Positions 17,720 through 64,000 of a stretch of 64,000 nt of DNA are shown piece after piece. A program made the translations under genes and the position numbers. The DNA is from a virus (taxonomy: Duplodnaviria; Caudoviricetes), in the IMG/VR virus record IMGVR_UViG_3300028909_000001; one strand, written 5' to 3'. Positions within the stretch are counted from its first letter, which is position 1; each line of letters begins with the position of its first letter. The notes under the pieces are model-generated. The model was given only the letters and a program-made list of their open reading frames with translations. It made no database searches and was not told the origin of the DNA.

Positions 17720-18115
17720 CTATTCGTCAACCAAAGTTCTAGCACTATAACCGAAAGCAGCTTCCATTACGGGGTCGTAGGATTCAGCAGTTTTAGGTCT
17801 AGCCGCAATTCTAGCAGGTTTACCTATTTGCGCCACATCACTAGCAGCACAAACCTTTTCGAGTGTCCTTATTATATAGATAGGATCTTCCATAGCTTTT
17901 TTAACAAAGCTTCTCTTCTCATGTTCCCCACTCAAAAAATCACTATCATATAAAACATCAGCAACCTTATTCAAAGCCATCTTATATTTTTCTTTATTTA
18001 ATTCTTGAACGGTAGCAGCTTTTATTTGATTCAACAATCTATCTTGCAAATCTTCATTTACTTCTATAGCTAACTTAATAAAGGATGCCGCTTGATGTAA
18101 AAAATTATTATCCAT
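17720..18115 (-). CDS. Putative head-associated protein (KxA motif)
   Basis: 131 aa; SFIKLA. Confidence 0.55.
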   Translation of the reverse strand: MDNNFLHQAASFIKLAIEVNEDLQDRLLNQIKAATVQELNKEKYKMALNKVADVLYDSDFLSGEHEKRSFVKKAMEDPIYIIRTLEKVCAASDVAQIGKPARIAARPKTAESYDPVMEAAFGYSARTLVDE

Positions 18116-18272
18116 TAGCTTGTTTAGATAGATGTTTTACTGCACTTATATAATCGATTACCTTTAACTTTTCTTTATCTGGGAGTTTATCCAGACTATT
18201 GCTATTAACTTTGCTAGAAGTAGGTTTATTTACTTCTAGCTTAGTCTGAAGTTTATTTAACAGAGAAGGCAT
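18108..18272 (-). CDS. Small 54-aa protein ending ...SKQANG (not in track)
   Basis: TAATG overlap with the scaffold stop; MPSLLNKLQTKLEV...; overlaps the next start. Confidence 0.6.
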   Translation of the reverse strand: MPSLLNKLQTKLEVNKPTSSKVNSNSLDKLPDKEKLKVIDYISAVKHLSKQANG

Positions 18273-19438
18273 TATTTAGCAGACTCAGTCTTAAGTCTAG
18301 CAATAACTTCTTCCACTACTCTACCACCCCAGGAAGCAAATTTAGCATCAAGTTTAGCTTCTTCTGCCTGCTTCTCAATAGTAGTTTCATAATGAGCTAC
18401 CTTGTCAGCCAGTTCTTTAGCTTTCTTTTCAGCTGCATACTTCTCATTAGTCAAAGCATTAACCTTCTGTTCAAATGCAGCCTTGATTTGATTAGCTTGT
18501 TCTTCTTCCTGTGCCTGCTTCAAAAGAGCATAGAACGCTTGGGCACCGGCTTCTTCTGCCTGCTTAACTTGCTGTTCTTCTGCCTGTTTCTGGAGTTGAG
18601 CATCATTAACATTAGCTTGCTTAGTAACAGGTTTAGGAGCAACTACTTTATTCTCATTTTCTAGTTCAGCCGCAGCAGTAGCAATAAGAGCTTCGAAGTC
18701 TCTCCTACCCGCTTCCTTATAGATATTAGCATCTACACTAGCAGTCTTACTCTTCAAGAATTCACGAGCAAACTGTCTACCCAACTCAAAGCTAGCTTCC
18801 TTATCCAATTCAAGTTCTTCAGCATTCTTAATAGCCTTGTCATTACCTTTTTCCTGCTTAAATTCTTGAGGATTGTGTTCGGGATGACCTTCCTTATTCT
18901 TATTAACCTTCTCAGTCTCTTTACTAACAGAGACGTAATGTGTATCAGCAGAGGGTTTACCGGTAGCCTTACCAGCTTCACCTGACTTCTGCATCTCATT
19001 AATAGTATCTAACAATTGCTGACCTAACTGAGCCAACTTTTCATTAGCGCCAGATTCAGCAGCCATTTTCTTACCTTCATGTTGCATAATTGTAGTAGGA
19101 GCTTCTTCTTTAGCTACTTCAGCAGGCTTAGTATTAGGAACCGCACATTCTTCTTTCTTGGCTTCCTTGGCAATTTCCGCTACTTTTTCAGGTTCAGGAG
19201 TAGGAGTGGCTTCAGCATTCTTAATAGCCTTGTCATTACCCATCTCTTGTTTAAACTCTTGAGGATTATGTTCGGGGTGACCTTCTTTATTCTTGTCTAC
19301 CTTTTCATGTTCCTTGCTTACTTCTGTATAATGTGTATCAGCTCCAGGCTTACCTGTAGCTACTCCTGCAGTGGCTTCTTTCTTGATCATAGTATTAAGT
19401 TGTTCTAGAAAGGCTGCATTCTTAGTAATTTTACCCAT
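18272..19438 (-). CDS. Capsid scaffolding-like protein
   Basis: Charged coiled-coil with very many KxA motifs; internal ~50-aa duplication; upstream of the capsid gene. Confidence 0.6.
   Translation of the reverse strand: MGKITKNAAFLEQLNTMIKKEATAGVATGKPGADTHYTEVSKEHEKVDKNKEGHPEHNPQEFKQEMGNDKAIKNAEATPTPEPEKVAEIAKEAKKEECAVPNTKPAEVAKEEAPTTIMQHEGKKMAAESGANEKLAQLGQQLLDTINEMQKSGEAGKATGKPSADTHYVSVSKETEKVNKNKEGHPEHNPQEFKQEKGNDKAIKNAEELELDKEASFELGRQFAREFLKSKTASVDANIYKEAGRRDFEALIATAAAELENENKVVAPKPVTKQANVNDAQLQKQAEEQQVKQAEEAGAQAFYALLKQAQEEEQANQIKAAFEQKVNALTNEKYAAEKKAKELADKVAHYETTIEKQAEEAKLDAKFASWGGRVVEEVIARLKTESAK
18818..19372 (-). repeat. Two imperfect ~160-bp direct repeats in the scaffold gene (~18818-18980 and ~19211-19372)
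   Basis: Both encode ATGKP.ADTHY..VSKE.EKV.KNKEGHPEHNPQEFKQE.GNDKAIKNAE. Confidence 0.85.
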
Positions 19439-19480
19439 AATTATTATTGGTTAGTGGTTATTAGTTATTATCTAGCTTTA

Positions 19481-20281
19481 TTAGGAGGGACCTTGGGGAC
19501 CAGCTGGCATTGGAGGCATTGCACCAGGACCTCCTGGGGGTGCTCCGGCAGGACCTGCTCCGGCTGGACTTGGTCCACCACCTTGGCCACTAATTGCAGC
19601 TAAAAGACTTTGAATTATTTGTTGCTGTTCTTCAGGAGGCAAGCTTTGAAGCATCTGCATAATTTGTGCAGTTTCAGCATCAGCACCTGGAGCACCTTGG
19701 CTAGGATCACTACCAGGACCACTAGGACCACCAGGACTTGGAGGTGCACCAGCAGAAGGATCACTAGGAGGAGCACCGGCACCAGCATCAGGAGGTTGCT
19801 TAAACATTCCGGTACTATCATCTGAACCATGTGCTTGCTTCTCTCTATCAACAACATCAACTAAAAGTGAAACAGCTTCATCTTGACTTAGACCAGCTTG
19901 TTTAGCCATACCAATAAACCCTTCAGCATATTGGCTGAGTCTTGGGTCATTAGCGATGGCATTAACCTTAGACATAAATGCCAACTTAGTATTGGTGGCA
20001 TCTAGAGCAGTCTTGGTGAATTGCAAAGCTTGGGCAACATTAGCACCATTCATAAATGCTTCATTAAGAATACCATTTACATAACTAATCGAAGAAGCAT
20101 TCTTTTCCATTCCAGCATTCTTAAGTAAACTATCTACAATATCTAGTTTAGGAGCAGCTGCAGTTTTTGTTTGTCTACTAGCAATTTGAGAGGCCTTGTT
20201 TAGAAGGGCGGCAATGTTTTGTTGAGGTACACCATTAGCCAAAGCTTGCTTAGTGAACTCTTGGACGTATAAATTATTCAT
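19481..20281 (-). CDS. Putative internal virion protein, Pro/Gly-rich C-terminus
   Basis: Repeated helical units YVQEFTKQALANG / YVNGILNEAFMNG / YAEGFIGMAKQAG; KxA motifs. Confidence 0.6.
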   Translation of the reverse strand: MNNLYVQEFTKQALANGVPQQNIAALLNKASQIASRQTKTAAAPKLDIVDSLLKNAGMEKNASSISYVNGILNEAFMNGANVAQALQFTKTALDATNTKLAFMSKVNAIANDPRLSQYAEGFIGMAKQAGLSQDEAVSLLVDVVDREKQAHGSDDSTGMFKQPPDAGAGAPPSDPSAGAPPSPGGPSGPGSDPSQGAPGADAETAQIMQMLQSLPPEEQQQIIQSLLAAISGQGGGPSPAGAGPAGAPPGGPGAMPPMPAGPQGPS

Positions 20282-20344: not shown

Positions 20345-21217
20345 TTAAGGACCGTGGTTTATAGCACCATTAATTACGTTAGTTTCATCTTGATTAGGCT
20401 TTGGTGCATTGAATGCTCCATCAGTTAAGGCAGACAAAGGACCATGACTACCACCAGGAGCACTAGAAGGTAATTCTTGTTGGCCTAATAGTTTAGCTAG
20501 TACATGTGGGTCAATTGAAGCACCACCTAATCCACCCAAACCAGCTCCAGTCAATCCACCTAGTAAAGCTCCACTACCTCTATGTTCTTTCCCACCAGCC
20601 ATAGCTCCTAAACTAGCTCCACCCAATCCACCACCTATAGCACCAGCAGCTTCAGGGTGTTGAGCTATTAATTGTTGTAATTGATGCATATCAAAGGCGT
20701 GCTTCAATAATTTAACAGCTAATAGAGGTTGTACTCCGTTAGTCAGTGCAGTCTTTATAAATCCTCTATCAAATGCTTCTTTGTTCATGTCTTTAAGTGC
20801 TTCAGGTTTAACTATCTCTTTAATTAGTTTCTTATCTTCTTGTTCATCTCCATGTCCGATACACTCAGGACATTTACCACATTCACAACTACCTCGCTTA
20901 ACATCAATACCGGTCATGTCTTTGAATTTTTCTGGAGAATAGTGCCCATTAATATTGTTGATGTTATTACGATATTCTTCATACCAGCCTGCTCGCTTTT
21001 CTTTATTCATCTGTTTCTTAATAGTTTTAAGTATTTCTGCTCTTTTAGGCAGTGATTTATCTATATGTCCTCTTCCCATAAAATGTTCTACAGAGCTTGG
21101 TTTCAGTTCGTGCGCAACTTCTTCTACTTTAGGATAGCCTTTACCACTAGCTTCACCCTTTTGAACTGCATGCACAAAATTAAAGAACTTTTCTTGTTTC
21201 TGACTAGTACTAGGCAT
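20345..21217 (-). CDS. DUF3008-like N-terminus + glycine-zipper putative virion protein
   Basis: MPSTSQKQEKFFNFVHAVQKG; AFDRGFIKTA; GAIGGGLGGASLGAMAGG. Confidence 0.55.
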   Translation of the reverse strand: MPSTSQKQEKFFNFVHAVQKGEASGKGYPKVEEVAHELKPSSVEHFMGRGHIDKSLPKRAEILKTIKKQMNKEKRAGWYEEYRNNINNINGHYSPEKFKDMTGIDVKRGSCECGKCPECIGHGDEQEDKKLIKEIVKPEALKDMNKEAFDRGFIKTALTNGVQPLLAVKLLKHAFDMHQLQQLIAQHPEAAGAIGGGLGGASLGAMAGGKEHRGSGALLGGLTGAGLGGLGGASIDPHVLAKLLGQQELPSSAPGGSHGPLSALTDGAFNAPKPNQDETNVINGAINHGP

Positions 21218-21258: not shown

Positions 21259-21684
21259 TTATATATTATTACAAGCTGATAAATGTGTTAATATATCTTC
21301 TGCAACTTTATCAAACTCTTTTAGTATGGCAGAACCTTTATATCTTAGAACAATATAATTTAACTTTTGTAATCTACTATTTATCCTGGCATCACGAAAT
21401 CTTCTTTTAGCTCCTGAATGCCATCTATCTCCATCACAATAAATCAATACATTATTATCTAAAACAAAGTCAGGAACAGAAATATTCTTTATACTTACTT
21501 GAGATTTAAAGTTTATATTTTGTTTCTCCAACCATTCTCTCATCTTCTTCTCTATATCAGTTTCATGGTGATGGCTAGCTATGTAGAATAGAGAACCACA
21601 TTTTCTAGAACAGTAGTTTTTCCATCTACCTTTTAATACTTTACCACAATTTTTACATTTAAGTTCCATATTACTTCGATTCAT
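21259..21684 (-). CDS. Zn-finger + DUF559/Vsr-like PD-(D/E)xK endonuclease
   Basis: CKNCG..YCSRKC; VPDFVL..IYCDGDRWH; RDARINSRLQKLNYIVLRY. Confidence 0.75.
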   Translation of the reverse strand: MNRSNMELKCKNCGKVLKGRWKNYCSRKCGSLFYIASHHHETDIEKKMREWLEKQNINFKSQVSIKNISVPDFVLDNNVLIYCDGDRWHSGAKRRFRDARINSRLQKLNYIVLRYKGSAILKEFDKVAEDILTHLSACNNI

Positions 21685-23071
21685 GCCAGGCTAGGAATGA
21701 GGGTTGGAATAAGGCCCCACTTCTCATCTGCTTACTATATCTTACATTAGCTACTCGTCCTAAATAATCTTTAGGATTGTTGTATATATCTTTTCTAGTA
21801 GCATCAGTCAATCCACTCGCAACCTCACCTACTACTTTACTTTTAGGTGTTAAAGAATATTTAACTGCACCCACTCCTTTATTCTTCAATCTACCCTTAC
21901 CTTCAGAAAATCCTCTAGCATATACATCTCTTTCAATAAAGTTCTTCAATTTAAAAGGCTCATTATTTTTTCTAGACCAGGCTACCACACCCTCACTAGT
22001 CAACTTATTCTTACCTTTAGCTATATCCTGTATCTTCTTAACTACATTTTCTCTATCTAGATACGGTACTTCTTCAAATTTATCTTTAGGTAGGTGTTGT
22101 AGTATCTCTTGTATTTTAGCTCTTCTATTATCTGGGCCACCTTTAAATCCTACTATATCAAATATGGCAGCTTTAAGTTTTATCTTTTCCTTCTTCTGTG
22201 TATTTAATGACTTCTCAGTACTAGAATTAAGCAGCCCACCTAAAGTTTGTTCAGGTATAGCTTCACCATTTCTAATACCATATAGTTCACCTCTCAATAT
22301 AGTACCAACCAATTCATCTGGTATATCCAAGTCTTGTTTATCTAGTCCGAACATTTTAAGAGTATGTATTATAGGCCTCCCAGTCTTACTAACTCTATAA
22401 GATACTACATCTACACTATTTTTATTAAGTCTAAACAAGTTCGAAGCCCCACTCAATTTAGCTGAGATTAGATGTGTCTTAGATAGTTCTTTTAAGTCTG
22501 GATTAGTTAGAGACTTCATTTTTAATTTATTCAATGCTTCTGGATTCTTAATATACTTCTTAGCATTGGTAGGACTTGTATTTAATGCCAACCAGTTTTT
22601 ACCTTTAGTATTGATTAAGGAGAACTGTTCAGGAAACTTTCTATGTAATAAGGTGAAGTTAATCTTTTTAGGTTCAGCTTTAGTTACAATAGCACTGCCT
22701 GATTCATTGGTGGTTACTTTTCCAGCCCCATATCCACTTTTAATCTCTCCTCGAAAATCTGCATATTCTCTAGTATGTAAAGGTTGTTGGATAAATAACC
22801 TCTTCTCTCCAGGTTTAGGTAGTCCATGTTTAGATACAAAACTATGGAGTTCTTTATCTCCTAATCTAATATCATGGTGAAATCCAGCCTTCCTAGCATA
22901 ATGATTTTGAACAACGAACTTAAGCTTTTTATAGAGTGGAATATCTTTTACATTTCCATAGTTGTTTCTATCTTTAATTCCAGGAGCAAAATCAGCTAGC
23001 TTAGTATAAAGAGGAACTCCACCAAATTTGGTGGAGTTCTTTATTATATCTCTTAGTACTTCAAAACTCAT
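21671..23071 (-). CDS. LigD-type 3'-phosphoesterase domain fused to ATP-dependent DNA ligase
   Basis: FVVQNHYARKAGFHHDIRL...HTREYADFRGEIKSGYGAG (PE domain); AKLSG, LRGELY, IFDI, EGVV, KLK and C-terminal OB-fold. Confidence 0.8.
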   Translation of the reverse strand: MSFEVLRDIIKNSTKFGGVPLYTKLADFAPGIKDRNNYGNVKDIPLYKKLKFVVQNHYARKAGFHHDIRLGDKELHSFVSKHGLPKPGEKRLFIQQPLHTREYADFRGEIKSGYGAGKVTTNESGSAIVTKAEPKKINFTLLHRKFPEQFSLINTKGKNWLALNTSPTNAKKYIKNPEALNKLKMKSLTNPDLKELSKTHLISAKLSGASNLFRLNKNSVDVVSYRVSKTGRPIIHTLKMFGLDKQDLDIPDELVGTILRGELYGIRNGEAIPEQTLGGLLNSSTEKSLNTQKKEKIKLKAAIFDIVGFKGGPDNRRAKIQEILQHLPKDKFEEVPYLDRENVVKKIQDIAKGKNKLTSEGVVAWSRKNNEPFKLKNFIERDVYARGFSEGKGRLKNKGVGAVKYSLTPKSKVVGEVASGLTDATRKDIYNNPKDYLGRVANVRYSKQMRSGALFQPSFLAWHESK

Positions 23072-23214
23072 TTAATATATTGTTTAAGCCAACCAGCCCT
23101 CTTATTATATAGTTTGTTAGTGAAGTTATTATCTATACCTAATTCTGCAGCAGCTTTGAAGAAACCAGCTTTGAATGCTATTTTTATTTTATTTTCTTTA
23201 ACTGACTTATTCAT
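23068..23214 (-). CDS. Small 48-aa protein with AFKAGFFKAA motif (not in track)
   Basis: MNKSVKENKIKIAFKAGFFKAAAELG...KRAGWLKQYIK; ATGA overlap with the ligase start. Confidence 0.65.
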   Translation of the reverse strand: MNKSVKENKIKIAFKAGFFKAAAELGIDNNFTNKLYNKRAGWLKQYIK

Positions 23215-23219
23215 AGAGT

Positions 23220-23882
23220 TTAACCCATCCTTGCACCAATCATATCACCAAAAGGCAAAGCAGTGAGATAAGGATGTTCATTCTTCATTTTAAGTGCCCT
23301 ATGTTGTGATTCATTAGTAGTATTATTTGTAATATATTTGTTTATTGCACCACCCAAACCTCCGCCCAAACCTCCAACCAAACCTCCAACACCAGTACCA
23401 ATTAAGGCTCCTACTCCACCATTCATTAGCATTTCTTTTGTGTTTAGTATTTCGGGGTCAGGCCCAACGTGGCTACCTGCATATCCACCAATAGCAGCAC
23501 CAGCAAGACCACCTAATAGTGCCATAGGTTTTGCCCATTGTTTAGCACTATGCCATGTATTTTCACCCGTTGTCCTTGCCTTCATATCTTGCAAACTTTG
23601 ATTCATCCTTTTCCCTCGTTCATCTTTTTTACCTAAGAAACGGCTGGCGAACATTTCTGGGGTACCTAACAAACTAACATAAGGAACAGAACCTAACATC
23701 ATACCAGGAACTGATCTAGCTGGATTATCTACATATGTTTGCGCAGCTATAGCTTTTTGGGCAAAGTATCTACCTAACCCAGAAGATTCAGCTAATTTGA
23801 GTAGTTCTCCTGTCTGTAATAGATTTAATCCATTATCGATAGCAGCTTTAATGAAACCGTATTTAAAAGATTCTTCATTCAT
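23220..23882 (-). CDS. Glycine-zipper putative internal virion protein
   Basis: SFKYGFIKAA leader; two GxxxG hydrophobic stretches. Confidence 0.65.
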   Translation of the reverse strand: MNEESFKYGFIKAAIDNGLNLLQTGELLKLAESSGLGRYFAQKAIAAQTYVDNPARSVPGMMLGSVPYVSLLGTPEMFASRFLGKKDERGKRMNQSLQDMKARTTGENTWHSAKQWAKPMALLGGLAGAAIGGYAGSHVGPDPEILNTKEMLMNGGVGALIGTGVGGLVGGLGGGLGGAINKYITNNTTNESQHRALKMKNEHPYLTALPFGDMIGARMG

Positions 23883-23885: not shown

Positions 23886-26444
23886 TTACTGATTCATTAA
23901 AATAGTATTAAGTAGAATATCATCAGTTAGCTTACCTTGTTCATTAATGTAGTTTAAACTAGCTAGCTGATACTCCGCATACTTCTTTGCAAATTCCAGG
24001 TCACATGCTTCTTTAGTAGGTTCTTGTTCTTCTCTCTTAATATTCCCACTACCACAAATTACAATCATTAGTCTTCTAACTACTGGACCTTCTTTCAAAC
24101 TATGCCCTTCCTCCAAACCTTTAACCGTCTTATCCAAATCATGAGGAGTATGAGTATGCAGGCTAGGATCAAATGTTTCAGAGTTTACAGCCTTATCATT
24201 ATCCAGCTTATTATAGATATGAGGTAAATGTGTCTTCATTCCTTCTACTCGCTCAGGCTTAACCTTATCATCAAACACATATCTACTAAAATCCTCAGGC
24301 TTTAAAACTATTCCATGATCTGCCAATGTCTTCAATACAGTACCTGGATCTAGTTTACGTAATGAATCTATGCTATTACTATCTATATTAGGAGTATGCT
24401 TAAGTTTATGTCCATGTTCCTTAATAAACTTATCCTTACTAGTAACTGGATTACCTTTAGTTACAGCATCCACATACTTTTCTAATTCTGCTAATTTCGT
24501 TAGTAATTCCCTTTTATCCGAAGCTTTCTTACTAATCATTAATTCATCAGGTATATAAATATCACTGTATAGATTAAGGAAGTGAGAGGGAGGAAGTGGT
24601 TTATAAGTTAAATCTGACGCTAGTTTGGATAAGCTCATACCAATCCTGTCAGCAGGTCTACGTACATAACTAATCTCAAACCATCTAGGGTCCGGAGTAT
24701 TAATCATTCGGCACATTTCACCCTCTTTATTAATTTCTCCTAAATGATTCTTAACGCAATCACATCTATCATTCTCTGTTTTAGCTCTATGACCACACCA
24801 AGAGCATAGGTCAGAGGCCATTTTTGCAGCCATACTCCAATTCGTATTACCTGTTCGTTCTTGCTCATCTAGAATATCTGCACATTTATCTCTATCCAAT
24901 CCTACTACTAATTCTATTCTACGCATCTTGTCATTATAAGCTGAAGCTTTTATAGTTCCATACTTAGGATCATTTGGTTTATTTTGATGATGCCTATGCA
25001 CAGCTCTTTTACTATCAGAGAAATAATGATGATTTTTGATACAATCCTTCTCTAAAAAGCAATCGCCGTTGCGATTGCTATTATGTACTTGGATGTCCAC
25101 TACATATGTATTATCTTCTTCAACTTCTAGATTATACTTTATTGTATCTTCTATTTCAGATAGTTCAACCAGTCCAACTTGTAATACTAAATGATTACTA
25201 CTAATCCAAGATCTACCTGCAAGATATTTTGGTTGTTTACTTGATGGAGCTAGTCGAAGAGTATATTGTAGTATTTTATTCGAATGACAACTCCCAACCC
25301 CTACAGTATAAATAACATGGTCAGTTTTTCCAAAGCATCCATTAGAGTGTTTATTCATTCCTTTATAAACATTCGAAGTTATACCACAAGAAGCCAATAA
25401 CCGATGTAAATCATAAGCTAGATTTCTAGAAGCTGTGGAGGCTGACATTGAACCTATATATCTGGCTGCTCCATTTGAATCAGGTCCTATAACATGTCCA
25501 TCACCATCAAAATAAGCAGCTAAGAACTTAAGTTTCCACTCAATAGATTGCTGGAATATTATAGGTGATAAGAATTTTATAGTGGAATGACAACCAAATA
25601 GTTTTAGGCATTGTTGGGCTTTTTCATAATTTTGGAACGAAAATCTTCTGCCATATTCACTAGTAAATGATTTTTGAATACTAGTTTCGGCCCCATTCAG
25701 TTTCTTTATAATAGATTGGATCTTATCAATACAAGGCTGATCCCCAACCGCCATAGTAAACAGGATTTTTGTATACTCACCACAATGACTTCTATCTTCT
25801 CTATATTCTTTCGCCAAACATCCTTCAGCTAAGTAATAACCAAACAAATAAGCATCATCTTCAGAAAATACTTCTTTTTTATCTTCATTATCTATATTAA
25901 TAGGAGTTAATACATAATCTCCAGGTTTAATCTCACTAGCTGGAATATAGGGGGCTTTGCTTATAATATCATCCAATACATCTTTGGGATTCACACCATC
26001 ATCTAATAATGAAGGACAGCGATGTTTAGTTCTAAAATCTACAGCTTTAATTACTTGTATAGGATGATTATCAGTGCATTCTATTCTATCACACAGACTA
26101 ACAATATCTAATGATACTTTAACTCCACTAAAATCATTTTCGTAGGTTTTTAGCACTTTTCTATATCTGCCTTTATGTGTAAGTACTAAATCTCCAACTT
26201 TTATATCTTCTATAGGTTTTATACCATTGATAGTTTGTACTGGTGCTCCTTTAAAGAAACATCCTGTACCTTCATATGATCCTACAGCAATTATATGCAA
26301 ATCCTCTTGATTTGGAGTCTTTTCGTACTTCAATAATGATTTAGCAGAAGCCCTCTTCTTTAACTCTTTGCCTGAGTCTTTTAAAAGCACCACACTTTCA
26401 CAATCAAAATCAAAGTCATTATTACCAGTAAATTTAAGAATCAT
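23886..26444 (-). CDS. Prohead (maturation) protease with LAGLIDADG intein
   Basis: Exteins G|SNRNGD, HRHHQN, WSM, CSWCG, FEISYVRRPAD, KLA: HK97/herpes-like serine protease pattern. Confidence 0.7.
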   Translation of the reverse strand: MILKFTGNNDFDFDCESVVLLKDSGKELKKRASAKSLLKYEKTPNQEDLHIIAVGSYEGTGCFFKGAPVQTINGIKPIEDIKVGDLVLTHKGRYRKVLKTYENDFSGVKVSLDIVSLCDRIECTDNHPIQVIKAVDFRTKHRCPSLLDDGVNPKDVLDDIISKAPYIPASEIKPGDYVLTPINIDNEDKKEVFSEDDAYLFGYYLAEGCLAKEYREDRSHCGEYTKILFTMAVGDQPCIDKIQSIIKKLNGAETSIQKSFTSEYGRRFSFQNYEKAQQCLKLFGCHSTIKFLSPIIFQQSIEWKLKFLAAYFDGDGHVIGPDSNGAARYIGSMSASTASRNLAYDLHRLLASCGITSNVYKGMNKHSNGCFGKTDHVIYTVGVGSCHSNKILQYTLRLAPSSKQPKYLAGRSWISSNHLVLQVGLVELSEIEDTIKYNLEVEEDNTYVVDIQVHNSNRNGDCFLEKDCIKNHHYFSDSKRAVHRHHQNKPNDPKYGTIKASAYNDKMRRIELVVGLDRDKCADILDEQERTGNTNWSMAAKMASDLCSWCGHRAKTENDRCDCVKNHLGEINKEGEMCRMINTPDPRWFEISYVRRPADRIGMSLSKLASDLTYKPLPPSHFLNLYSDIYIPDELMISKKASDKRELLTKLAELEKYVDAVTKGNPVTSKDKFIKEHGHKLKHTPNIDSNSIDSLRKLDPGTVLKTLADHGIVLKPEDFSRYVFDDKVKPERVEGMKTHLPHIYNKLDNDKAVNSETFDPSLHTHTPHDLDKTVKGLEEGHSLKEGPVVRRLMIVICGSGNIKREEQEPTKEACDLEFAKKYAEYQLASLNYINEQGKLTDDILLNTILMNQ
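25080..26261 (-). mobile_element. Intein (394 aa) with LAGLIDADG endonuclease
   Basis: CFFKGAPV...TDNHP...YLFGYYLAEG...FLAAYFDGDG...YNLEVEEDNTYVVDIQVHN|S. Confidence 0.92.
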
Positions 26445-27478: not shown

Positions 27479-28870
27479 TTATTCCCCTGCTACTGGATTA
27501 GGAGGCGGTTGTAGTCCTCTTTGTAGTTGATGTTGCTTAAATAAACCTGTATTCGCCTTAATTAAGTCAGCTGCCTCAAATGGTGAAATGGCCTGACTCG
27601 CACCAGCTTGTCTAAGGAATGCTCTAGTAATTTCCTTCTCACTACTTAATTCTGGAGCAATTCTAAGCATTTGTTGGTAAGCATCTACTACATGATGAGT
27701 AGGAAACTTACTTATAATAGGATCAGTAGCTACAAGTTCTTGTAGTAATAATGCTCTATCCCTGTTCGCTTCAGGAGTATTAGTACTGGCACTCAATTCT
27801 GGTTTACCTTGTTTATCCTTATAACCTGAAAAGCTTTTAGTTATATTCATGAGGTCAATTGCAGACTTAATTCTACTATCAAACTCCTCCTCTACCGCAG
27901 CTTTCTTTTCAGCAATACAAGTCATAACCGGATCTTCAGGGTCAGCCTTGGCAATCTTACTTCTTTCTGCCTTGATAGATGCATCGACCTGGGCTAACAA
28001 AGAATCAGTATCTGCTATCTTTTCTATATCTTGTTTAAACAATCCTTTAAAATAACTCTGTTCAAAATTAAGGTTATAGGCTGCATCTTCTGACTTTACG
28101 GTAGCTTCTTTAAGATATGTTACACTATTAATAAACTTATCATATAGTTCAGTTTCATTACATAGTGCAGCTAATTTAATGTTGGAATCATGAACACCTC
28201 TTTCTTCTTTTAGATTAGAGGTTTTATATAACAAATCCAAATATCCATTACTAGCATTACCATACTTACTAAATACGCTAGTTTCAAATTCATGCCAGGC
28301 AGATCTACAATCATTACTCTCAGCGAATTTTCTAAGTATATTGCAGAAGTTTTTATTTACTTCAAATTCAGCATCTAATCTATCTGCTTCAGCATCATAG
28401 GCTTGTTTTTGTAATTTACTAATATATTTTACACTCTTATCATAAGCACCAGATTTACTTAATTCATTTTTACCTACATCTTCAGTAAGTATTAGTTTAG
28501 CATAAGCTTCTTTATAAGGTCCTGGCTCCAAATATCTTGCAAATTTAGGAGCAGTTTCTTGGATTTGAAAAGAAGAGAATAGTTCTGATTCCAATTCTGA
28601 GGCAGTCTTTTCTTTTCCGCTATATATATCTTCAGCAACTTTGGCTGCATCAACTATGGGAAAATCATCAGCTTTTGAGTCTGGATGCTTCTTAAAGTGA
28701 TCATAGTGCAAAGCTACATTAATAGCTTCACAACTACGCTTAATAAAGTTATGATTAAGTTCCAGTGATTTAGCAACCTTAGTAGCTGCTTCTTGAGGTG
28801 GAGTACCAGTATTTATCTCAGTAACTATCTCATGGACTGCAAATTTTACCAATTCTTCAGGTGTGCGCAT
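27479..28870 (-). CDS. Putative virion protein, KxA-rich
   Basis: 463 aa; KFA, KTA, KQA, KLA, KIA motifs. Confidence 0.6.
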   Translation of the reverse strand: MRTPEELVKFAVHEIVTEINTGTPPQEAATKVAKSLELNHNFIKRSCEAINVALHYDHFKKHPDSKADDFPIVDAAKVAEDIYSGKEKTASELESELFSSFQIQETAPKFARYLEPGPYKEAYAKLILTEDVGKNELSKSGAYDKSVKYISKLQKQAYDAEADRLDAEFEVNKNFCNILRKFAESNDCRSAWHEFETSVFSKYGNASNGYLDLLYKTSNLKEERGVHDSNIKLAALCNETELYDKFINSVTYLKEATVKSEDAAYNLNFEQSYFKGLFKQDIEKIADTDSLLAQVDASIKAERSKIAKADPEDPVMTCIAEKKAAVEEEFDSRIKSAIDLMNITKSFSGYKDKQGKPELSASTNTPEANRDRALLLQELVATDPIISKFPTHHVVDAYQQMLRIAPELSSEKEITRAFLRQAGASQAISPFEAADLIKANTGLFKQHQLQRGLQPPPNPVAGE

Positions 28871-30016: not shown

Positions 30017-30304
30017 TTAAATACTAAATGGTTTATTATTTAGATTTGGAACTACTCCCGGTACTTGAGATATTGGATTTTGTTGTCTGAACTGGGAGAG
30101 TAATTGGTAGAAAGGGAGTTGTTGTGCTCCTGATTGATTTTGTGGTTGTGAAGGTTGAGCTGGTCTAGTAGCTTGAGGTCCTGGTTGATTCATTGCAGGG
30201 TTAGGTTGTGACATATTACTCATTGCACCTAAAGCCGGAATTTGACCACCTTCTCCTAACGCTGCTTTTATAAAACCATTAATATATGCATCTTCTATTG
30301 TCAT
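30017..30304 (-). CDS. Gln/Pro-rich protein with YINGFIKAA leader (start likely 30304)
   Basis: MTIEDAYINGFIKAALG. Confidence 0.6.
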   Translation of the reverse strand: MTIEDAYINGFIKAALGEGGQIPALGAMSNMSQPNPAMNQPGPQATRPAQPSQPQNQSGAQQLPFYQLLSQFRQQNPISQVPGVVPNLNNKPFSI

Positions 30305-36934: not shown

Positions 36935-37636
36935 TTAGATTTCTGGATTTCCGCCTGGTTCATCTTCACCATTATCATATTCACTATCTTCTGATTTTCT
37001 ATGCTTGCTATATAGATAAGCCCCTAAACCACCTAAACCTGCAGCGCCCAAACCTAATTCATAAGGAACTTTGTTGTTACTAATATGATTGGATAATACT
37101 TCAAATAAAGATTGGGGAGAAATATCATTCTTATGTAAAGCTTGTTCTGCTCCAGTTATAGCTCCATGTATACTAGGTTTAATAGTAGTATTAGCATTTA
37201 CATTATTAAATACATTACCTAATCCTTGACCAGCATAATGAGCACCTATGCCTCCACCTACTCCAAGTCCGGCAGCAGTACCTAGTCCCATGTCACCAAC
37301 TGATTTACTTTTGAATAGTTTACTCAATACGGATTTGGCATCAATATTAGCTGGTTCTGGTTTACTATTTAATTTAAGTTGATTTCCTCCAAAGCCATCT
37401 AATTTAATCTTATTACTTATAGAACCTAGATTAAGTTTACTAGATGGAAAGTCAGAACTAGAAGGAGCTTTAGGTATAGCTAAATTAGAAACAGCTGCCT
37501 CTGGTATAGAAGCACCAGTAGCCTCAGTAGCACCAGTAACTTCAGGTTTAAGTACATTAGCCAATTCTTCAAATGACTTAATAGGATTTGCAGAAGCTTT
37601 AATAAATCCGTTAATAAATGCGTTATTTAGATTCAT
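36935..37636 (-). CDS. Glycine-zipper putative virion protein
   Basis: AFINGFIKAS leader; GLGTAAGLGVGGGIG; LGLGAAGLGGLG. Confidence 0.6.
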   Translation of the reverse strand: MNLNNAFINGFIKASANPIKSFEELANVLKPEVTGATEATGASIPEAAVSNLAIPKAPSSSDFPSSKLNLGSISNKIKLDGFGGNQLKLNSKPEPANIDAKSVLSKLFKSKSVGDMGLGTAAGLGVGGGIGAHYAGQGLGNVFNNVNANTTIKPSIHGAITGAEQALHKNDISPQSLFEVLSNHISNNKVPYELGLGAAGLGGLGAYLYSKHRKSEDSEYDNGEDEPGGNPEI

Positions 37637-43185: not shown

Positions 43186-43536
43186 ATGAAGAGTTGGATT
43201 ATTATTGTATTTAGCTTGATTAGTATTAGTATTGAAGCACAACAATTAAATAAAGTCTATCTAAATCACTTATTAGACGCTATTTATCTAGCTGAGGGTG
43301 GGGCTAATACTAAATATCCTTATGGAGTGATTGGAGATTTTAAAAAGAGTCCAAGAATTATAGCTGCCAATACTATAAAACATAATTACAATAACTGGTT
43401 AAATAGTAGTTCTAAAACAGATTTCTTAAGATATCTACAACAACACTATTGTCCTATAAATGCTAAAAATGACCCTAATCATTTAAATGATAACTGGTAT
43501 AAGAATGTATCTTTAATAATGAAACAGTATGAATAA
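43186..43536 (+). CDS. Lysozyme-like/transglycosylase-type protein with signal peptide
   Basis: Hydrophobic N-terminus; DAIYLAEGG..YPYG; YCP...NDP..LN.NW..NV. Confidence 0.5.
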   Translation: MKSWIIIVFSLISISIEAQQLNKVYLNHLLDAIYLAEGGANTKYPYGVIGDFKKSPRIIAANTIKHNYNNWLNSSSKTDFLRYLQQHYCPINAKNDPNHLNDNWYKNVSLIMKQYE

Positions 43537-44206
43537 GTTAGATGCATTTATTAATGGTTTTATCAAGGCTGCTGGCCCACTCCCTCCACCTCCTCCACCT
43601 CCTACACCTCCTACACCTCCAAAAATTCCGATGATTTCATTACCACACAATGCTTATACTGTTGGTGGTCTCCCTCCAAATATGCATAATTTTGTTAATA
43701 AAGGTGGTAATACCCTTAATATAAATGCTCACGGTGGTCCTGATAGTGCTATTAATGGAGAATATGCATTTCAAAGTGATTCTAATAATTCTAAAAACTT
43801 GCTTTATAACAATGAACCACTAACTTATACTCCTCAAACATTGGCTAAACTTATTGGTCCAGCTACTAACAATATCAATAATATTTATACTACTGCTTGT
43901 AATGGTGGGGATTGCTCCAATACTAATGTGAGTCCAAACGAAGTGCTTAAAGGGTTTGCTACTCCAGCTATGTACCGTAAATTATTCCCTAATCTTACTA
44001 ACGTTGTTCAAATCCCTCCCAGGCATTATGGTCCATTAATTCCAAGTCAATTTAAGACTAATGAATACCCAGACGTAGTGAATATAATAAATAGAATTAT
44101 TAAAGATAGGAATCCTAATGATCCAATAACTACAAGCTTGCCTCATCAATATAATCTACAAGGTGGTACTAATTGGGTGGATAAAGGGACTTACTATAAT
44201 TACTGA
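43529..44206 (+). CDS. FINGFIKAA-leader protein with possible clan CD (caspase/CHAT-like) His-Cys dyad
   Basis: INAHGG...IYTTACNG after a poly-Pro linker. Confidence 0.45.
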   Translation: MNKLDAFINGFIKAAGPLPPPPPPPTPPTPPKIPMISLPHNAYTVGGLPPNMHNFVNKGGNTLNINAHGGPDSAINGEYAFQSDSNNSKNLLYNNEPLTYTPQTLAKLIGPATNNINNIYTTACNGGDCSNTNVSPNEVLKGFATPAMYRKLFPNLTNVVQIPPRHYGPLIPSQFKTNEYPDVVNIINRIIKDRNPNDPITTSLPHQYNLQGGTNWVDKGTYYNY

Positions 44207-52598: not shown

Positions 52599-52599
52599 A

Positions 52600-57314: not shown

Positions 57315-57448
57315 GATTATTCATACCTTTAATCCTGGTAGTCTCCCTGCTCAGCTATTGGTTCTGGTCCACCTATATCAGAAGTGAAAGTAAAAGACGT
57401 AGGGATATTAATTCTGACATTGAAAATAAACGCTTTGATGACTTATGA
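57311..57448 (+). CDS. Small membrane protein (45 aa; not in track)
   Basis: ATGA overlaps at both ends; MRLFIPLILVVSLLSYWFW. Confidence 0.6.
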   Translation: MRLFIPLILVVSLLSYWFWSTYIRSESKRRRDINSDIENKRFDDL

Positions 57449-57975: not shown

Positions 57976-58785
57976 ATGTATTCACGTAGTCAGATCATCT
58001 CTAAATTAGTCTATAGTATTGACCAACTATCAGCTCAGAACTTGGTTGGAGATATACTGGTTACGGCTAAAAGGTCTGATCAGTATGACGGTGAATTTCC
58101 TAACAAGTTAAATAAGCTGAATGCCTGCTTAAAGAAGTTGTTTAGTAAAGGAGTCTCTATCGTAACCAGGTCTGATTCTGGTAAACTACATGCTCATATA
58201 GGTGTGGAGATGCCTGGTCCTGTCACTAACTTTGACTGGGTAGCTTTTGAACAGAGTGAAAGATACTACAATCTATATAAGCATTTTAAAGATAAGGATA
58301 GCTTGAAATTCTACAACTATTATACCAAGAAGTATAGAAATAGCCTCCCTACTACCTGGCAAGTTATTAATAGTAAACTAATGAGTATAGGTAAAAAGCT
58401 GGGTTTAGGTCGAATATTCCTAACCCCTATTAGAAAGAATCTAACTGCATATAAATGGTATTTAGTATCTAATGTTCCTTATAAAAGAGAAAAGAGAGAT
58501 AAATACATTAGATTCTTCTTTAGTTGGGGTATGGCGGTAGTAGATAAATGTCAGATATTAAATAAGTATACTAAAGCATACCGTAATAAGCTCAAGTCAT
58601 TTGCTGAAGGCTTGCAATTAACTAGTGAATCCTATAATATGGTTTTAAGAGATGTACTAGGTAATTCCTGGCATTATCGTGTTAATGAATTGATCAAACA
58701 TATAGATTCTTTAGACTCTTTAGAATTAATCAAATATAATGAATTAAAGTCAACTGTAGCCCTGCATTTACTTCGTTCTCAATGA
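57976..58785 (+). CDS. HUH-superfamily rolling-circle Rep-like protein, diverged
   Basis: RSDSGKLHAHIGV (motif II); LGLGRIFLTPIRKN..AYKWY (motif III region). Confidence 0.5.
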   Translation: MYSRSQIISKLVYSIDQLSAQNLVGDILVTAKRSDQYDGEFPNKLNKLNACLKKLFSKGVSIVTRSDSGKLHAHIGVEMPGPVTNFDWVAFEQSERYYNLYKHFKDKDSLKFYNYYTKKYRNSLPTTWQVINSKLMSIGKKLGLGRIFLTPIRKNLTAYKWYLVSNVPYKREKRDKYIRFFFSWGMAVVDKCQILNKYTKAYRNKLKSFAEGLQLTSESYNMVLRDVLGNSWHYRVNELIKHIDSLDSLELIKYNELKSTVALHLLRSQ

Positions 58786-59801
58786 ATAAAACATCCTTCT
58801 ATAAAGGTTTACTAGCTGAGTTAACCAAACTAACCAAACTATCTGAACTAGCTAAAGAACCATCTAAAAAACATTGGTATCAGAATCCTTATGTATTAGG
58901 AGGATTAGGTATTGGTGCTGGCGCTCTAGGTACTTATGGATTGAATAGATATTTTGATAATCCTGCAACAAGCCCAACCCAATCAATTACTACCTCTACT
59001 CCTACCACTCCTACCACTCCTGCCCCTACCTCATTTAACTCTTTGAATAATGGAATAGCTACTGGAGTTGGAGCAGGTTTAGGTGGTTTGGCTGTAAAGA
59101 AATGGGGCCTTAATGGAGTATCTGGTGGAGTTGATGCTCTTAGTGGAATTAATAATATATATGATAGTGTTTCAAATCCTGATAACTTAAGTCCTGGTTT
59201 AAGAGCAGTTCAAGGTGTAGGTGGTGCATCTCAAGCAGTATTAGGTGGTTTAGGTTTGGCTGGTAAATCTGTTCCTATGGGTGGATTTGGTAGTCTAGGT
59301 AGATCAGTATCTATGAGACCAATAACCAACCTTGCCTCCAAACTACTACCATCAGCTCTTAGAAGTACTGCCCCAGCTATACAAAGCTTCTTACCAGGTT
59401 TTGCTGCACCTCGAGCCATGACTGCTGCTGCTGGTAGTGTAGCTGCTGTACCGTTATCTGGTGGGGCTGCAGTTCAAGCTTTATTAAATGAAGGAGGAGA
59501 TAAAGCTCAACAACATTCAGATTTGCTAGGTAGTGTAGCAGATAGTCTAGTAGGTACTAAGAATAACCCTGGTATAAGACAGGAACTAAGGTCTGGCGAT
59601 CCGGCCTTAATCAATGATGCTAAACAAAGATTAAATAGTTTCTTTAGTTCTGGATCAAATAATCTAGTGACAAGTCCTGGTACATTAGCTAATATAGGTT
59701 ATAACCCTACTCCTTGGTCTAATAAAGGAAATACTGAGAATTTTCAGACTATTGCACATTTACTAGAACAAGTACGTAGAGAGGCAGAGTTAACCAAATA
59801 A
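58782..59801 (+). CDS. Glycine-zipper putative virion protein
   Basis: SFYKGLLAELTKL leader; several GxxxG segments. Confidence 0.6.
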   Translation: MNKTSFYKGLLAELTKLTKLSELAKEPSKKHWYQNPYVLGGLGIGAGALGTYGLNRYFDNPATSPTQSITTSTPTTPTTPAPTSFNSLNNGIATGVGAGLGGLAVKKWGLNGVSGGVDALSGINNIYDSVSNPDNLSPGLRAVQGVGGASQAVLGGLGLAGKSVPMGGFGSLGRSVSMRPITNLASKLLPSALRSTAPAIQSFLPGFAAPRAMTAAAGSVAAVPLSGGAAVQALLNEGGDKAQQHSDLLGSVADSLVGTKNNPGIRQELRSGDPALINDAKQRLNSFFSSGSNNLVTSPGTLANIGYNPTPWSNKGNTENFQTIAHLLEQVRREAELTK

Positions 59802-59803: not shown

Positions 59804-60565
59804 ATGAGTAACTTATATAATGAATTTGTAAGCGGTTTCTTAAAGCTGGCTGAAGAAGAGAAGTGTGACGTAGATTTCCTCAAAGGCTATATTAAGCAAG
59901 CTGATGAAATAGTAGATATTTGGACGCAAGCCTTTGACGTACTAGCTAAAGAATCTGGTGACCCTCAATACAAGGTTAAGCTAGCTAATGAGATTATTAG
60001 ATTTACTCAACTACTACCTCAAATACATAAACAAGCAGATTTACAAGATACTGAGAAAGGTTATGAAAACTTCCTAGGCGGACTTAATAATGGAGGATTA
60101 AGCCAGGGTCAAAATTGGCTGGAGCATCAATCCTGGATGCCTCAATTTATACAGCAAGCATTACATAACAATCCAAACCTATTATCTAGTCTACTCTCTG
60201 GTAGTATGGGTGGTGGTTTAGGAGGACTATTAATTGGTGCATTGCTAGGTCATCCAATGTCTGGTCTGATGCTGGGTGGTTTAGGTGGTGCAGCTTCAGG
60301 AGCATTCTTAGGTAATCAAGGTATTAGAGATATGTTTAATTCTGGAGATGGAGTTCCCAAACCTACTCCTCCTCCTCAAGAACTTCCAGACAGGGCTCCT
60401 AGTAGTCTGAATCATGGTCCTGACGATCTACCTACTAGTGCTCCTAGTAATCAGAGTCATGGTGTTATAGAACCAACTCCTACCTCAGCTCCTACTAATA
60501 GTATTCCTAATGTTAAACCTATTAGTCCTGTTAATAATGCAACAAATACAGTACCACATAAATAA
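59804..60565 (+). CDS. Glycine-zipper putative virion protein
   Basis: EFVSGFLKLA; KQA twice; GGGLGGLLIGALLG. Confidence 0.6.
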   Translation: MSNLYNEFVSGFLKLAEEEKCDVDFLKGYIKQADEIVDIWTQAFDVLAKESGDPQYKVKLANEIIRFTQLLPQIHKQADLQDTEKGYENFLGGLNNGGLSQGQNWLEHQSWMPQFIQQALHNNPNLLSSLLSGSMGGGLGGLLIGALLGHPMSGLMLGGLGGAASGAFLGNQGIRDMFNSGDGVPKPTPPPQELPDRAPSSLNHGPDDLPTSAPSNQSHGVIEPTPTSAPTNSIPNVKPISPVNNATNTVPHK

Positions 60566-62339: not shown

Positions 62340-62341
62340 TT

Positions 62342-62746
62342 ATGCCTAAGAAAAATATTGAGATTAAGAATCGTGAAGACTTCATGCTGCAAGGAACATT
62401 GAGTGAGGTACCTTGGGAACCAAAGTCTGAAGAACAGATTCAGAAAGATTTATTTAAAAGTAGTGACCCGGATAAGATACTTGATGCTTTTGAAACTCAA
62501 CTAGGTATAAAATCAAATAATGTACCTATTCCTAATGAGATCTATAAGTGTATATTTTTAAAACCATGTAGTGATGATGAACATGCTCAATTATTACAAG
62601 ATTTATATAATAACTCTAGAAGATATAGAGTTTTGAATCGGTCTGATAATTGGACCCATAAAGGAGATTTGGTAATGTTTGTTGAATATGTTGAAAACCT
62701 GGATGTTAAAGCAGAGTTGGAGAAAGAGAAGGAAAACAATATATGA
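62342..62746 (+). CDS. Hypothetical protein
   Basis: 134 aa. Confidence 0.55.
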   Translation: MPKKNIEIKNREDFMLQGTLSEVPWEPKSEEQIQKDLFKSSDPDKILDAFETQLGIKSNNVPIPNEIYKCIFLKPCSDDEHAQLLQDLYNNSRRYRVLNRSDNWTHKGDLVMFVEYVENLDVKAELEKEKENNI

Positions 62747-63711
62747 ATGAAATTTTAAAGAAAGCTTCAGGCTATACTCCCCCAGAATTGATGTTGTTAT
62801 CTGCTTTGGGTGGCGGAAGTGTATTTGCCGGACTAAGGTTGCTCACAGATATGGGGAGTAAATTAAATCCACCTAAAGTAGAGCAAAATAAAATCAAGCT
62901 ACAATTACCGGAAAATAATGGAATTGCTTCAGTAACTCCTGGGGAAGCTGGTCCATTACAAGGTTTCGGTAAATCAGCAGAACCAATGCAGCCTGATTGG
63001 TATGTTTCTCCTCTCTCAGCCTTAGTAGGTTTGCCTATAGGATTCTTAGGAACTAAAGCGCTTTATGACAAATATCAGGAGAATCAAGGAAATGCTCAGA
63101 TAGCCGAAGCTAAAAAGAATTATACTAAGCAGTTAATGCTAGCTCAACAAATGAATAAAATGAGTGAAGAAACACCATTAGTAGATGCATTCTGTAAAGC
63201 TGCTGCAGAAGAATTGGATAAAGAAGCTGCTTCTTTACTTAGTTTGACAAAAGGTCTGATAAATAAAGTACCAGGTCTTAATGCTGTAAAAGGTTTCACT
63301 AATCAACATAAATGGGTTACCCCTATCGCAGGTTTAGGTGCATTAGGTGTGGCTGATAATTATGTAGAACCAACTACTAAATCTTTAACAGAAAATGCAC
63401 CAAATGCTATGGGATTTGCTCCCTCAGCAGTACCTGGTATTGATAGTAGTACTATTATGAAGAATCTCCCTACTGATGATGCTAGCTTGTTAAGTGCTGA
63501 AGATAGTTTATCTAATAAAGCTTCTAAAGGTGGTAATGCATTTGTAAACAAGCTTACTGGTAATTATTGGGGACAGACTAAAGATACTTGGAAGGCATTA
63601 GCTGGTTTAGGTACAGCTGGTACATTCGGTATACTATTAAATAATCATCTAAAGAAAAAAGAGAAGGAAGAAAAAGCTCAATATCCTGTAGGTGTTGAAT
63701 ATGCAAAATAA
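62743..63711 (+). CDS. Multi-segment KxA/membrane-helix putative virion protein
   Basis: KKA, KSA, KAA and KEA each precede a unit with a hydrophobic helix. Confidence 0.6.
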   Translation: MNEILKKASGYTPPELMLLSALGGGSVFAGLRLLTDMGSKLNPPKVEQNKIKLQLPENNGIASVTPGEAGPLQGFGKSAEPMQPDWYVSPLSALVGLPIGFLGTKALYDKYQENQGNAQIAEAKKNYTKQLMLAQQMNKMSEETPLVDAFCKAAAEELDKEAASLLSLTKGLINKVPGLNAVKGFTNQHKWVTPIAGLGALGVADNYVEPTTKSLTENAPNAMGFAPSAVPGIDSSTIMKNLPTDDASLLSAEDSLSNKASKGGNAFVNKLTGNYWGQTKDTWKALAGLGTAGTFGILLNNHLKKKEKEEKAQYPVGVEYAK

Positions 63712-64000
63712 TGCTTTTTATAGAGGAGTACTTAGTGAGATAAATAAGTTTGCTCAAGTAACTCCTCCTACACCTCAAATAACACCTTCAGCTCCTAGTC
63801 CAGTTATCTCAGGTATTAAGGCACCTCTTCTCTCTCAAACTCAGCATACAATAAATGATTTTGAAAGTGTTTATCCTAAAGTAGAATCAGCTTTGCCTAA
63901 TATAGAGAAATCTATTAGTAGTATACCAGATAATCAATTAGCTTCCACTACTCCTGAGCAATTTAAAAATACAGTCACTCCTTCATTTTCACAGATACTA
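63701..64000 (+). CDS. Partial ORF with AFYRGVLSEINKFA leader (runs off the right edge)
   Basis: MQNNAFYRGVLSEINKFAQVTPPTP..., open to the window end. Confidence 0.6.
   Translation, partial: MQNNAFYRGVLSEINKFAQVTPPTPQITPSAPSPVISGIKAPLLSQTQHTINDFESVYPKVESALPNIEKSISSIPDNQLASTTPEQFKNTVTPSFSQIL

Follow-up and report, generated by a model that had tools for sequence, protein, structure and literature searches.

Why would otherwise unrelated proteins of one phage begin with nearly the same short helix? The question is posed by a 64,000-nucleotide stretch of DNA (the window, meaning the whole stretch that was analysed) from a virus of the class Caudoviricetes, IMG/VR record IMGVR_UViG_3300028909_000001 (127 kb, G+C content 35.5%), of which it represents the reverse strand of bases 10900-74899. 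A first-pass annotation had pointed to a shared leader, FxxGFIKAA, and to recurring K-x-A motifs as a putative capsid-targeting and protease-processing code. We found that K-x-A is a conserved, head-specific motif and that the leader is predicted to form helix 1 of a two-helix hairpin domain of ~30 residues. Judging from sequence, structural models and analogy, we put it at slightly better than an even chance that the two make up an "address plus cut-site" code of the T4 type, written in a new sequence. In the window, tail-protein genes, including a sheath match, occupy 1-13 kb, and 15 to 48.7 kb is a head block in which enzyme genes (split multisubunit RNA polymerase (RNAP) genes, DNA ligase, SNF2 helicase and RNase H) are embedded among head genes. 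A sister phage (G001, 134.6 kb) is syntenic, with a mean identity of 60% between its head-block proteins and their counterparts in the window.

A six-frame scan located the leader in 11 open reading frames (ORFs) of the window, N-terminally in 10 and internally in one. All ten occurrences listed by the first-pass annotation were found where it had placed them, and an eleventh turned up at the N-terminus of ORF 19481-20281. The consensus is Met, 4-6 residues, and then [FY]-x-x-G-[FLV]-[ILF]-K-x-A; the distance from Met to F/Y is 4-6 residues in nine ORFs and 13 residues in the small ORF 23071-23214. The leaders end in K-x-A, with the copy in ORF 58782-59801 lacking a clear one. A long form continues with x-x-N-G-[ILV]-x(4)-A-x-x-L-L-K, and a short form ends in K-A-[AS] and leads directly into Pro/Gln-rich linkers. 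The eleven carriers are as follows.

23784..23882, minus strand: long-class leader (helix-turn-helix hairpin, residues 1-33) of ORF 23220-23882, a protein of 220 amino acids (aa) with Gly-zipper segments, directly downstream of the protease
23071..23214, minus strand: long-class leader forming nearly the whole of a 47-aa ORF (hidden Markov model E-value 7e-14)
20696..20788, minus strand: internal hairpin (residues 144-174) of ORF 20345-21217, starting M-N-K-E-A-F behind a DUF3008-like N-terminal domain (E-value 4e-18)
19481..20281, minus strand: scaffold-like 266-aa protein with a hairpin at its start and two degenerate copies; 8 K-x-A against 1.9 expected
30260..30304, minus strand: short-class leader of 15 aa, ending K-A-A, of ORF 30017-30304, followed by a Pro/Gln-rich region; the Met start at 30304 is backed by the G001 ortholog
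37592..37636, minus strand: short-class leader at the start of the 233-aa ORF 36935-37636, which has Gly-zipper segments
43529..43573, plus strand: short-class leader that runs into a poly-Pro linker; its carrier, ORF 43529-44206, has 225 aa
47884..47928, plus strand: short-class leader with a Pro-rich linker behind it, in the 264-aa ORF 47884-48678
59804..59851, plus strand: variant leader, ending K-L-A, of ORF 59804-60565; a full hairpin according to the G001 ortholog
58782..58859, plus strand: looser F-Y-x-G-L-L-A-E-L variant of ORF 58782-59801; the leader of the L001 ortholog ends K-T-A
63701..63754, plus strand: F-Y-R-G-V-L-S-E-I-N-K-F-A variant in an ORF that runs off the window end

The 47-aa leader-only ORF abuts the ligase and may be the remnant of a disrupted leader gene. 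Two of the short-class genes have close neighbors: a 116-aa ORF (43186-43536) with a typical N-terminal signal peptide and no family match overlaps the start of leader gene 43529-44206, and a clear RNase H gene (47392-47889, E-value 2e-33) is divergent from leader gene 47884-48678.

The leader is conserved as a peptide. In the four ORFs that carry [FY]-I-N-G-F-I-K-A, synonymous codons differ at five of the eight positions, and therefore the peptide itself appears to have been kept rather than recently copied as DNA. The F, K and A of F-x-K-x-A were invariant in 17 hairpins, and the Gly four residues later was nearly so. In 15 homologs of the 220-aa protein, G-F-x-K-x-A (G9, F10, K12, A14) was invariant and the remainder averaged 23% identity; similarly, the cargo parts are only 14-40% identical between this phage (G000) and G001, versus the 60% head-block average. 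Genes at syntenic positions in G001 also carry leaders, and likewise those of three relatives at ~50% protease identity. The AlphaFold2 model of the 220-aa protein had a mean predicted local distance difference test (pLDDT) score of 44.8, with helices 3-16 and 21-33 the best defined parts (pLDDT 58-74).

Recognition of the leader as part of a hairpin, present three times in the scaffold-like protein and widespread beyond this phage, goes further than the first-pass annotation. Among 1.84 billion representatives, a profile built from the 17 hairpins matched 456 clusters (E ≤ 0.001). In the best 148 of these, 83% had the hairpin within the first 15 residues, protein lengths ranged from 54 to 799 aa, and the C-terminal parts of 117 fell into 63 BLASTP groups. 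The homologs of the 266-aa scaffold-like protein had three stretches matched by the profile. When 20 leader proteins and hairpin representatives were scanned against Pfam and PHROGs, no family covered the N-terminal ~30 residues; for the 20 proteins, matches were limited to unrelated C-terminal or upstream domains (DUF6321, DUF3008, Gly-zipper). A tblastn search of GenBank phages with a 40-aa hairpin, a search of IMG/VR with the exact back-translated FINGFIKAA pattern, and a full-text search of the accessible literature library for the strings GFVKRA, GFIKRA and GFIKAA each found no match. On three further contigs (L017, L018 and L020), 3-5 adjacent genes each start with a nearly identical hairpin, M-N-T-Q-Q-A-Y-I-N-G-F-V-K-R-A-A-E-Y-G, and then diverge into unrelated remainders with HExxH motifs, an ATP-grasp-like part, Gly zippers or Pro-rich regions. 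L020 comes from a 34.7-kb contig (40% G+C), where the hairpin genes lie between a SNF2 helicase gene and collagen-repeat, tail-fibre-like genes; the contigs L017 and L018 are short.

A DUF3008-like N-terminal domain (M-P-x-x-S-x-A-Q-Q-R-L-F-G) was fused upstream of the hairpin in many clusters. Such fusions were seen in ORF 20345-21217 of the window and in P0256, P0282, P0285, P0286, P0290, P0343 and P0359, some with additional DUF6321 or HExxH parts.

The motif in which the leader ends recurs across the head block, which for counting comprised 27 ORFs and 10,187 aa. These statistics cover the head/enzyme and tail blocks; the accessory block at 48.7-57.4 kb, where ORF calls are uncertain, was left out. 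K-x-A was seen 112 times in the head block against 65.9 expected from whole-protein shuffles (z 6.3), and 16 times in the tail block against 16.5, bearing out the earlier proposal that the motif is enriched in head over tail ORFs beyond composition. When residues were shuffled within windows of 10-30 positions, ~64 were expected (z 6.6-7.0) and none of 300 shuffles reached the observed count; taken together, the head-block tests put z at 5.8-7.0. Among 1,600 patterns (400 residue pairs at gaps 0-3) K-x-A ranked first, and the reverse pattern, A-x-K, was seen 64 times against 65.8 expected. Besides the 266-aa scaffold-like protein, the protease (10 against 4.0 expected) and ORF 36261-36932 (6 against 2.5), the excess was carried by three proteins:

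18272..19438, minus strand: scaffold-like protein of 388 aa, charged and helical; K-x-A at 22 sites (8.3 expected), of which 19 are conserved in G001
17720..18115, minus strand: small protein of the head block with 131 aa; K-x-A at 7 sites (1.6 expected)
27479..28870, minus strand: head-block protein of 463 aa, ortholog of gp220 of Salmonella phage Arash; K-x-A at 15 sites (5.0 expected), of which 12 are conserved in G001

The residue at position -2 was hydrophobic in 37 of 68 sites, and the residue after Ala was mostly Glu, Ser or Ala. As a separate observation, a segment of ~50 residues (T-G-K-P-x-A-D-T-H-Y ... K-A-I-K-N-A-E) is duplicated within the 388-aa protein, where it occupies positions ~27-76 and ~158-207.

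Comparison with relatives indicated that K-x-A is maintained as a unit. Across 83 ortholog pairs with G001, the head-block motif was conserved as a pair at 71 of 98 sites (72%, with 40% expected from single-residue conservation), second among 124 patterns, and its middle residue and flanks often changed. Sites within the first 35 residues were found in 9 of 22 head-block and 6 of 15 right-block ortholog pairs, versus 1 of 29 in the tail. The capsid gene lies just outside the range (17720-64000) of the earlier finding:

14953..15912, minus strand: HK97-fold major capsid protein, 319 aa, with language-model look-alikes at 0.98

The N-arm of this protein contains K4-I-A6 and K25-x-A27, and in 38 homologs K4, K25 and A27 were invariant and A6 was present in at least 90%. 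K-x-A was also the top-ranked pair in the head blocks of more distant relatives (L014, 79 seen and 34.0 expected; L015, 77 and 38.9; L016, 79 and 34.6; z 6.1-7.7), and it was again the top pair in gp218-226 of Arash (46 against 21.0, z 5.4), where the tail block was flat (19 against 19.8).

As a positive control, the same blind pair test was run on T4 genes 20, 67, 68, 21, 22, 23 and 24. I-x-E ranked first (z 4.1) and L-x-E third (z 2.8), and in the core proteins alone (gp67, gp68, gp21 and gp22) they ranked first and second. The signal was concentrated in the scaffold gp22 (16 against 5.8) and in gp21 (7 against 2.6), with nothing comparable in the T4 tail genes. In the T4 core proteins K-x-A and A-x-K each occurred 12 times, and therefore the asymmetry between the two patterns in the phage studied here is not general to scaffold proteins. 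Together, these data support the view that K-x-A behaves as the motif of a prohead protease should: it is enriched, asymmetric, head-specific, concentrated in scaffold-like proteins and the protease, conserved as a pair, and clade-wide.

The enzyme that would read such a motif is encoded within the head block:

23886..26444, minus strand: prohead protease with a Hint/LAGLIDADG intein; the extein is modelled in three parts, with a gp21/assemblin-fold domain at the N-terminus, a disordered linker in which K-x-A sites followed by Ser are conserved, and a helical domain at the C-terminus

The window protease matched the PHROG head maturation protease (E-value 2e-6). Its G001 ortholog is intein-free (453 aa) and yielded an AlphaFold model with a pLDDT of 77.7 (41 homologs), in which a linker modelled with low confidence (202-237) joins a beta-rich domain (~38-210) to a helical C-terminal domain (241-453). 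VIA-align returned T4 gp21 (5jbl_A) as the first match to this model (Z 9.2, root-mean-square deviation 3.4, 136 of 165 residues aligned), followed by six herpesvirus proteases at Z 5-6.7 that were interleaved with MCE-domain proteins. Plain Foldseek against the PDB gave no match with E below 0.06, only VIA-align brought out the gp21 match clearly, and phmmer against PDB sequences found nothing for the protease, the capsid protein or a 747-aa protein of the window. An hhalign comparison of the protease family with T4 gp21 found no sequence similarity (probability 0.07), and therefore the protease assignment rests on fold, the one PHROG match, gene position and language-model neighbors. Across 41 protease homologs H90, H91 and S142 (the last a candidate catalytic Ser) were invariant or nearly so, nine K-x-A columns were conserved, and the mean was 11.8 K-x-A per protein against 3.9 expected. 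These columns include K29-R-A31 (followed by Ser) before the catalytic domain, K211-x-A213 (followed by Ser) in the linker, and K241-K-A243 (followed by Ser-Asp) at the C-terminal edge of the linker.

Hint domains were present in four head-block genes, namely the protease (23886-26444), RNAP beta'-C (33919-36258), the middle piece of RNAP beta' (38588-40309) and the SNF2 helicase (44163-47063), and three of the four also had LAGLIDADG. The G001 orthologs of the protease, SNF2 helicase and beta'-C are shorter by ~400, ~350 and ~140 residues, respectively, which suggests that they are without inteins.

Members of the gp21/assemblin superfamily read P3-x-P1 motifs. Because K-x-A fits this form, with Ala at P1 as in herpesviruses, we judge it likely to be the motif of the head protease. 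For the leader as a prohead address we see the chances as even: its logic is that of the T4 capsid-targeting sequence (CTS), a conserved hydrophobic part and then K-x-A, carried by fast-diverging proteins. Hydrophobic-x-K-x-A is enriched and conserved in the scaffold-like proteins, the protease and the N-termini of ~20 head-block proteins, and leaders plus conserved N-terminal K-x-A sites give ~20 proteins in the window, in keeping with the more than 20 that had been claimed. In the process we envisage, the leader helix or hairpin would dock its protein into the assembling prohead core. The protease would cut after Ala (Lys at P3, Ala at P1, and mostly Ser, Glu or Ala at P1'), shredding the scaffold proteins, freeing itself from its own C-terminal helical domain and trimming N-terminal propeptides, that of the capsid protein included; the cut at the leader would then release the cargo inside the head. 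As the leader proteins are largely Gly-zipper and Pro-rich, the cargo is probably ejected with the DNA and acts on the host envelope. Support for the window's enzymes as head cargo is indirect and comes from virion proteomics of Arash, a distant relative, where mass spectrometry put RNAP beta (3,516 spectra), beta' (1,210) and a helicase (1,148) on a par with the capsid protein (1,333) (PMC10585845).

Several results weigh against this reading. In the long-class hairpin, K-x-A sits in the middle of predicted helix 1 (AlphaFold2), and a cut there would therefore split the domain rather than remove it. Three conserved columns of the protease (K104, K125 and K146) lie inside the folded domain, so not every K-x-A can be an accessible cut site. 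The lack of sequence similarity to gp21 counts on the same side. In the RNAP pieces, ligase and SNF2 helicase, K-x-A is neither enriched nor clearly depleted; the "HKFA" that had been assigned to the C-terminus of RNAP beta'-C is conserved in no relative examined, and of the "KKEA" claimed for SNF2, the site is roughly conserved at a domain junction but the protein has no K-x-A excess. For the ligase, to which "TKLA" had been assigned, no ortholog occurs in the relatives examined. Finally, on the 35-kb-class contigs with tandem hairpin genes we saw neither K-x-A enrichment nor a protease, and therefore the hairpin may work there without proteolysis. A predicted complex of capsid protein and hairpin scored 0.00 and counts neither for nor against.

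The mid-helix position of K-x-A and the conserved copies inside the folded protease domain would be natural if the hairpin served permanently as a module for the assembly or oligomerisation of scaffold proteins and internal head proteins, with hydrophobic-x-K-x-A as a repeated, multivalent docking "sticker" that is head-bound but uncut. The three hairpins of the 266-aa scaffold-like protein would also fit, as would the hydrophobic residue at position -2 in 37 of 68 sites, which has the helical i/i+4 pattern. We nevertheless regard this as doubtful: conserved K-x-A sites followed by Ser occur in the disordered linker flanking the protease domain and near many N-termini, the motif has the P3-x-P1 form typical of the protease superfamily, and the identical statistic recovers the true cleavage motif in T4. 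That the leader has nothing to do with capsid loading, and instead is an amphipathic helix that acts after ejection or in the infected cell, targeting its proteins to the host membrane, to the envelope or to some factor of host or phage, appears unlikely. In its favor are the amphipathic nature of the motif, the Gly-zipper, membrane-like segments or the HExxH and other enzyme-like parts found in many carriers, and the position of the hairpin genes beside tail-fibre-like genes on the smaller contigs. Against it, genes at scaffold positions between those for protease and capsid protein also contain the hairpin, the residues invariant in the hairpin line up with the head-specific K-x-A, and the leader genes of this phage are embedded in the head module.

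An invariant Lys in a short consensus also recalls psi-K-x-E, the sumoylation site consensus, and K-x-A might mark chemically modified or conjugated lysines rather than cut peptide bonds. This seems very unlikely, given that the motif is also present in Arash and that cleavage by the protease would account for its position at domain ends and N-termini. Least credible of all is that the shared N-termini are traces of gene duplication and the K-x-A excess a by-product of composition. The long-class proteins 23220-23882, 20345-21217 and 19481-20281 are indeed paralogs sharing ~30 residues, but duplication is disfavoured by the codon differences between copies, by C-terminal parts that fall into 63 unrelated groups, and by retention of the motif while the remainder drops to 14-40% identity; a composition effect is disfavoured by z values of ~7 under local shuffling with A-x-K flat.

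The address plus cut-site reading can also be extended beyond this phage. The hairpin could be a general, portable capsid-address domain in a large uncultured assemblage (this jumbo clade and 35-45-kb phages, at least 456 clusters) whose F-x-K-x-A is read by the head protease itself, such that the inactive protease in the core would recruit cargo and the activated protease would cut and release it. We offer this extension tentatively and think it improbable as it stands.

The closest parallel is T4, in which the CTS is carried by IPI, IPII, IPIII and Alt and removed by the prohead protease gp21 at L/I-x-E (PMC9026906). The T4 CTS is 10 residues long, with positions 4 and 7 targeting the protein to the core and positions 8 and 10 directing processing, and it is found on fast-evolving internal proteins (PMC9026906). 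Here, too, proteins that evolve fast and are otherwise unrelated have in common a short N-terminal leader ending in a P3-x-P1 motif; both the scaffold and the protease are enriched in this motif, and the predicted protease fold is the same (Z 9.2 to 5jbl). In contrast, the sequences are unrelated (F-x-x-G-F-I-K-x-A here, M-K-T-Y-Q-E-F-I-A-E in T4), the putative specificity is Lys at P3 and Ala at P1 rather than Leu/Ile and Glu, and the leader of this phage is often a two-helix domain of ~30 residues that is repeated in a scaffold-like protein. The analogy with CTS/gp21 drawn by the first-pass annotation therefore stands for fold, motif enrichment and a leader ending in the motif, and fails for any sequence relation to the CTS, L/I-x-E or gp21. 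The system would work like that of T4, yet its sequences place it outside the T4 family, because leader and motif differ and the hhalign comparison with gp21 found nothing.

Other head proteases offer partial likenesses. In phiKZ-like giants (phiKZ gp175, SPN3US gp245), many head and ejection proteins are processed at A/S/G-x-E, with A-x-E as the motif of the SPN3US protease, and the virion contains an RNAP (PMC10052503). Like these, the phage studied here is a jumbo phage with multisubunit RNAP genes beside head genes, many putative N-terminal propeptides, several motif copies per propeptide and putative self-cleavage of the protease; unlike these, it has another motif, a capsid protein that is small (319 aa) and lacks a long propeptide, and a shared leader domain. 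To our knowledge, no such leader domain has been described for phiKZ-like phages. No phiKZ-type phage was among the tblastn matches of the capsid protein. In herpesvirus pUL26, a release site with Ala at P1 lies between the protease and the scaffold part, and the R and M sites have Ala at P1 (PMC4498786). The herpesvirus motif has the form x-x-A followed by S/T. The modelled layout of the phage protease resembles that of pUL26, in that its N-terminal protease domain shares the fold (Z 5-6.7) and precedes a linker holding a putative release site and a helical C-terminal part; the putative sites also have Ala at P1, often with Ser at P1', but P3 is of the Val/Leu/Gln type in herpesviruses and Lys here. 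We know of no cargo leaders in herpesviruses.

In encapsulins, cargo is loaded by peptides that mostly lie at the C-terminus, make direct contact with the shell protein and stay uncleaved. With the proposed role of the leader they share the principle of a short portable peptide that addresses diverse cargo into an HK97-fold shell, whereas the leader is N-terminal and putatively cleaved. In staphylococcal phage 80alpha, the scaffold and capsid proteins share an N-terminal leader that is removed by the host protease Prp. The similarity lies in a conserved N-terminal leader on several head proteins that is cut at a fixed motif (putatively so here), but 80alpha relies on a host-encoded protease and has two leader proteins, compared to about twenty proteins and a phage-encoded protease in this phage.

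Head-carried, injected phage proteins are normally learned only by mass spectrometry of cultured phages. If the address plus cut-site reading is true, the injected proteome of a widespread uncultured jumbo-phage clade would be predictable from sequence alone, and the gp21/assemblin superfamily would gain a new specificity class (Lys at P3, Ala at P1), placed between phage enzymes that cut after Glu and herpesvirus enzymes that cut after Ala. The analysis also defines an unannotated N-terminal domain of ~30 residues in hundreds of protein clusters. Were the portable capsid-address extension true as well, metagenomes could reveal injected proteomes directly, and foreign proteins could be loaded into capsids by means of the tag. 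Because Arash, a cultured Salmonella phage, also bears the K-x-A signature, bench tests of the idea are already feasible.

The protease and the capsid protein each have ~340 metagenome homologs, many on 130-290-kb contigs. Megablast of 25 kb against GenBank phages gave no match; among cultured phages, Arash and three Vibrio phages come nearest, with capsid proteins that are 28-30% identical (tblastn). An atlas look-up gave no usable match for the 747-aa protein, and we do not call it a portal, since Arash's portal annotation is on a different gene.

The ligase (LigD phosphoesterase and ligase domains; 21259-23214 region) had no reciprocal-best match in G001, and the 141-aa Cys-rich gene adjoining it matches the G001 gene directly after the leader gene; the ligase gene therefore looks like an insertion. 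The 48700-57400 block has a G+C content of 0.40-0.44 versus ~0.35 elsewhere and holds only short ORFs on both strands; tRNA and Rfam families were looked for in it and none was found. Between the tail and head blocks, 13266-14408 encodes a 380-aa protein with a weak Mom-family match (E-value 2e-4). ORF 57445-57840 is Cys-rich and has the C-terminus R-R-L-E-L-E-L.

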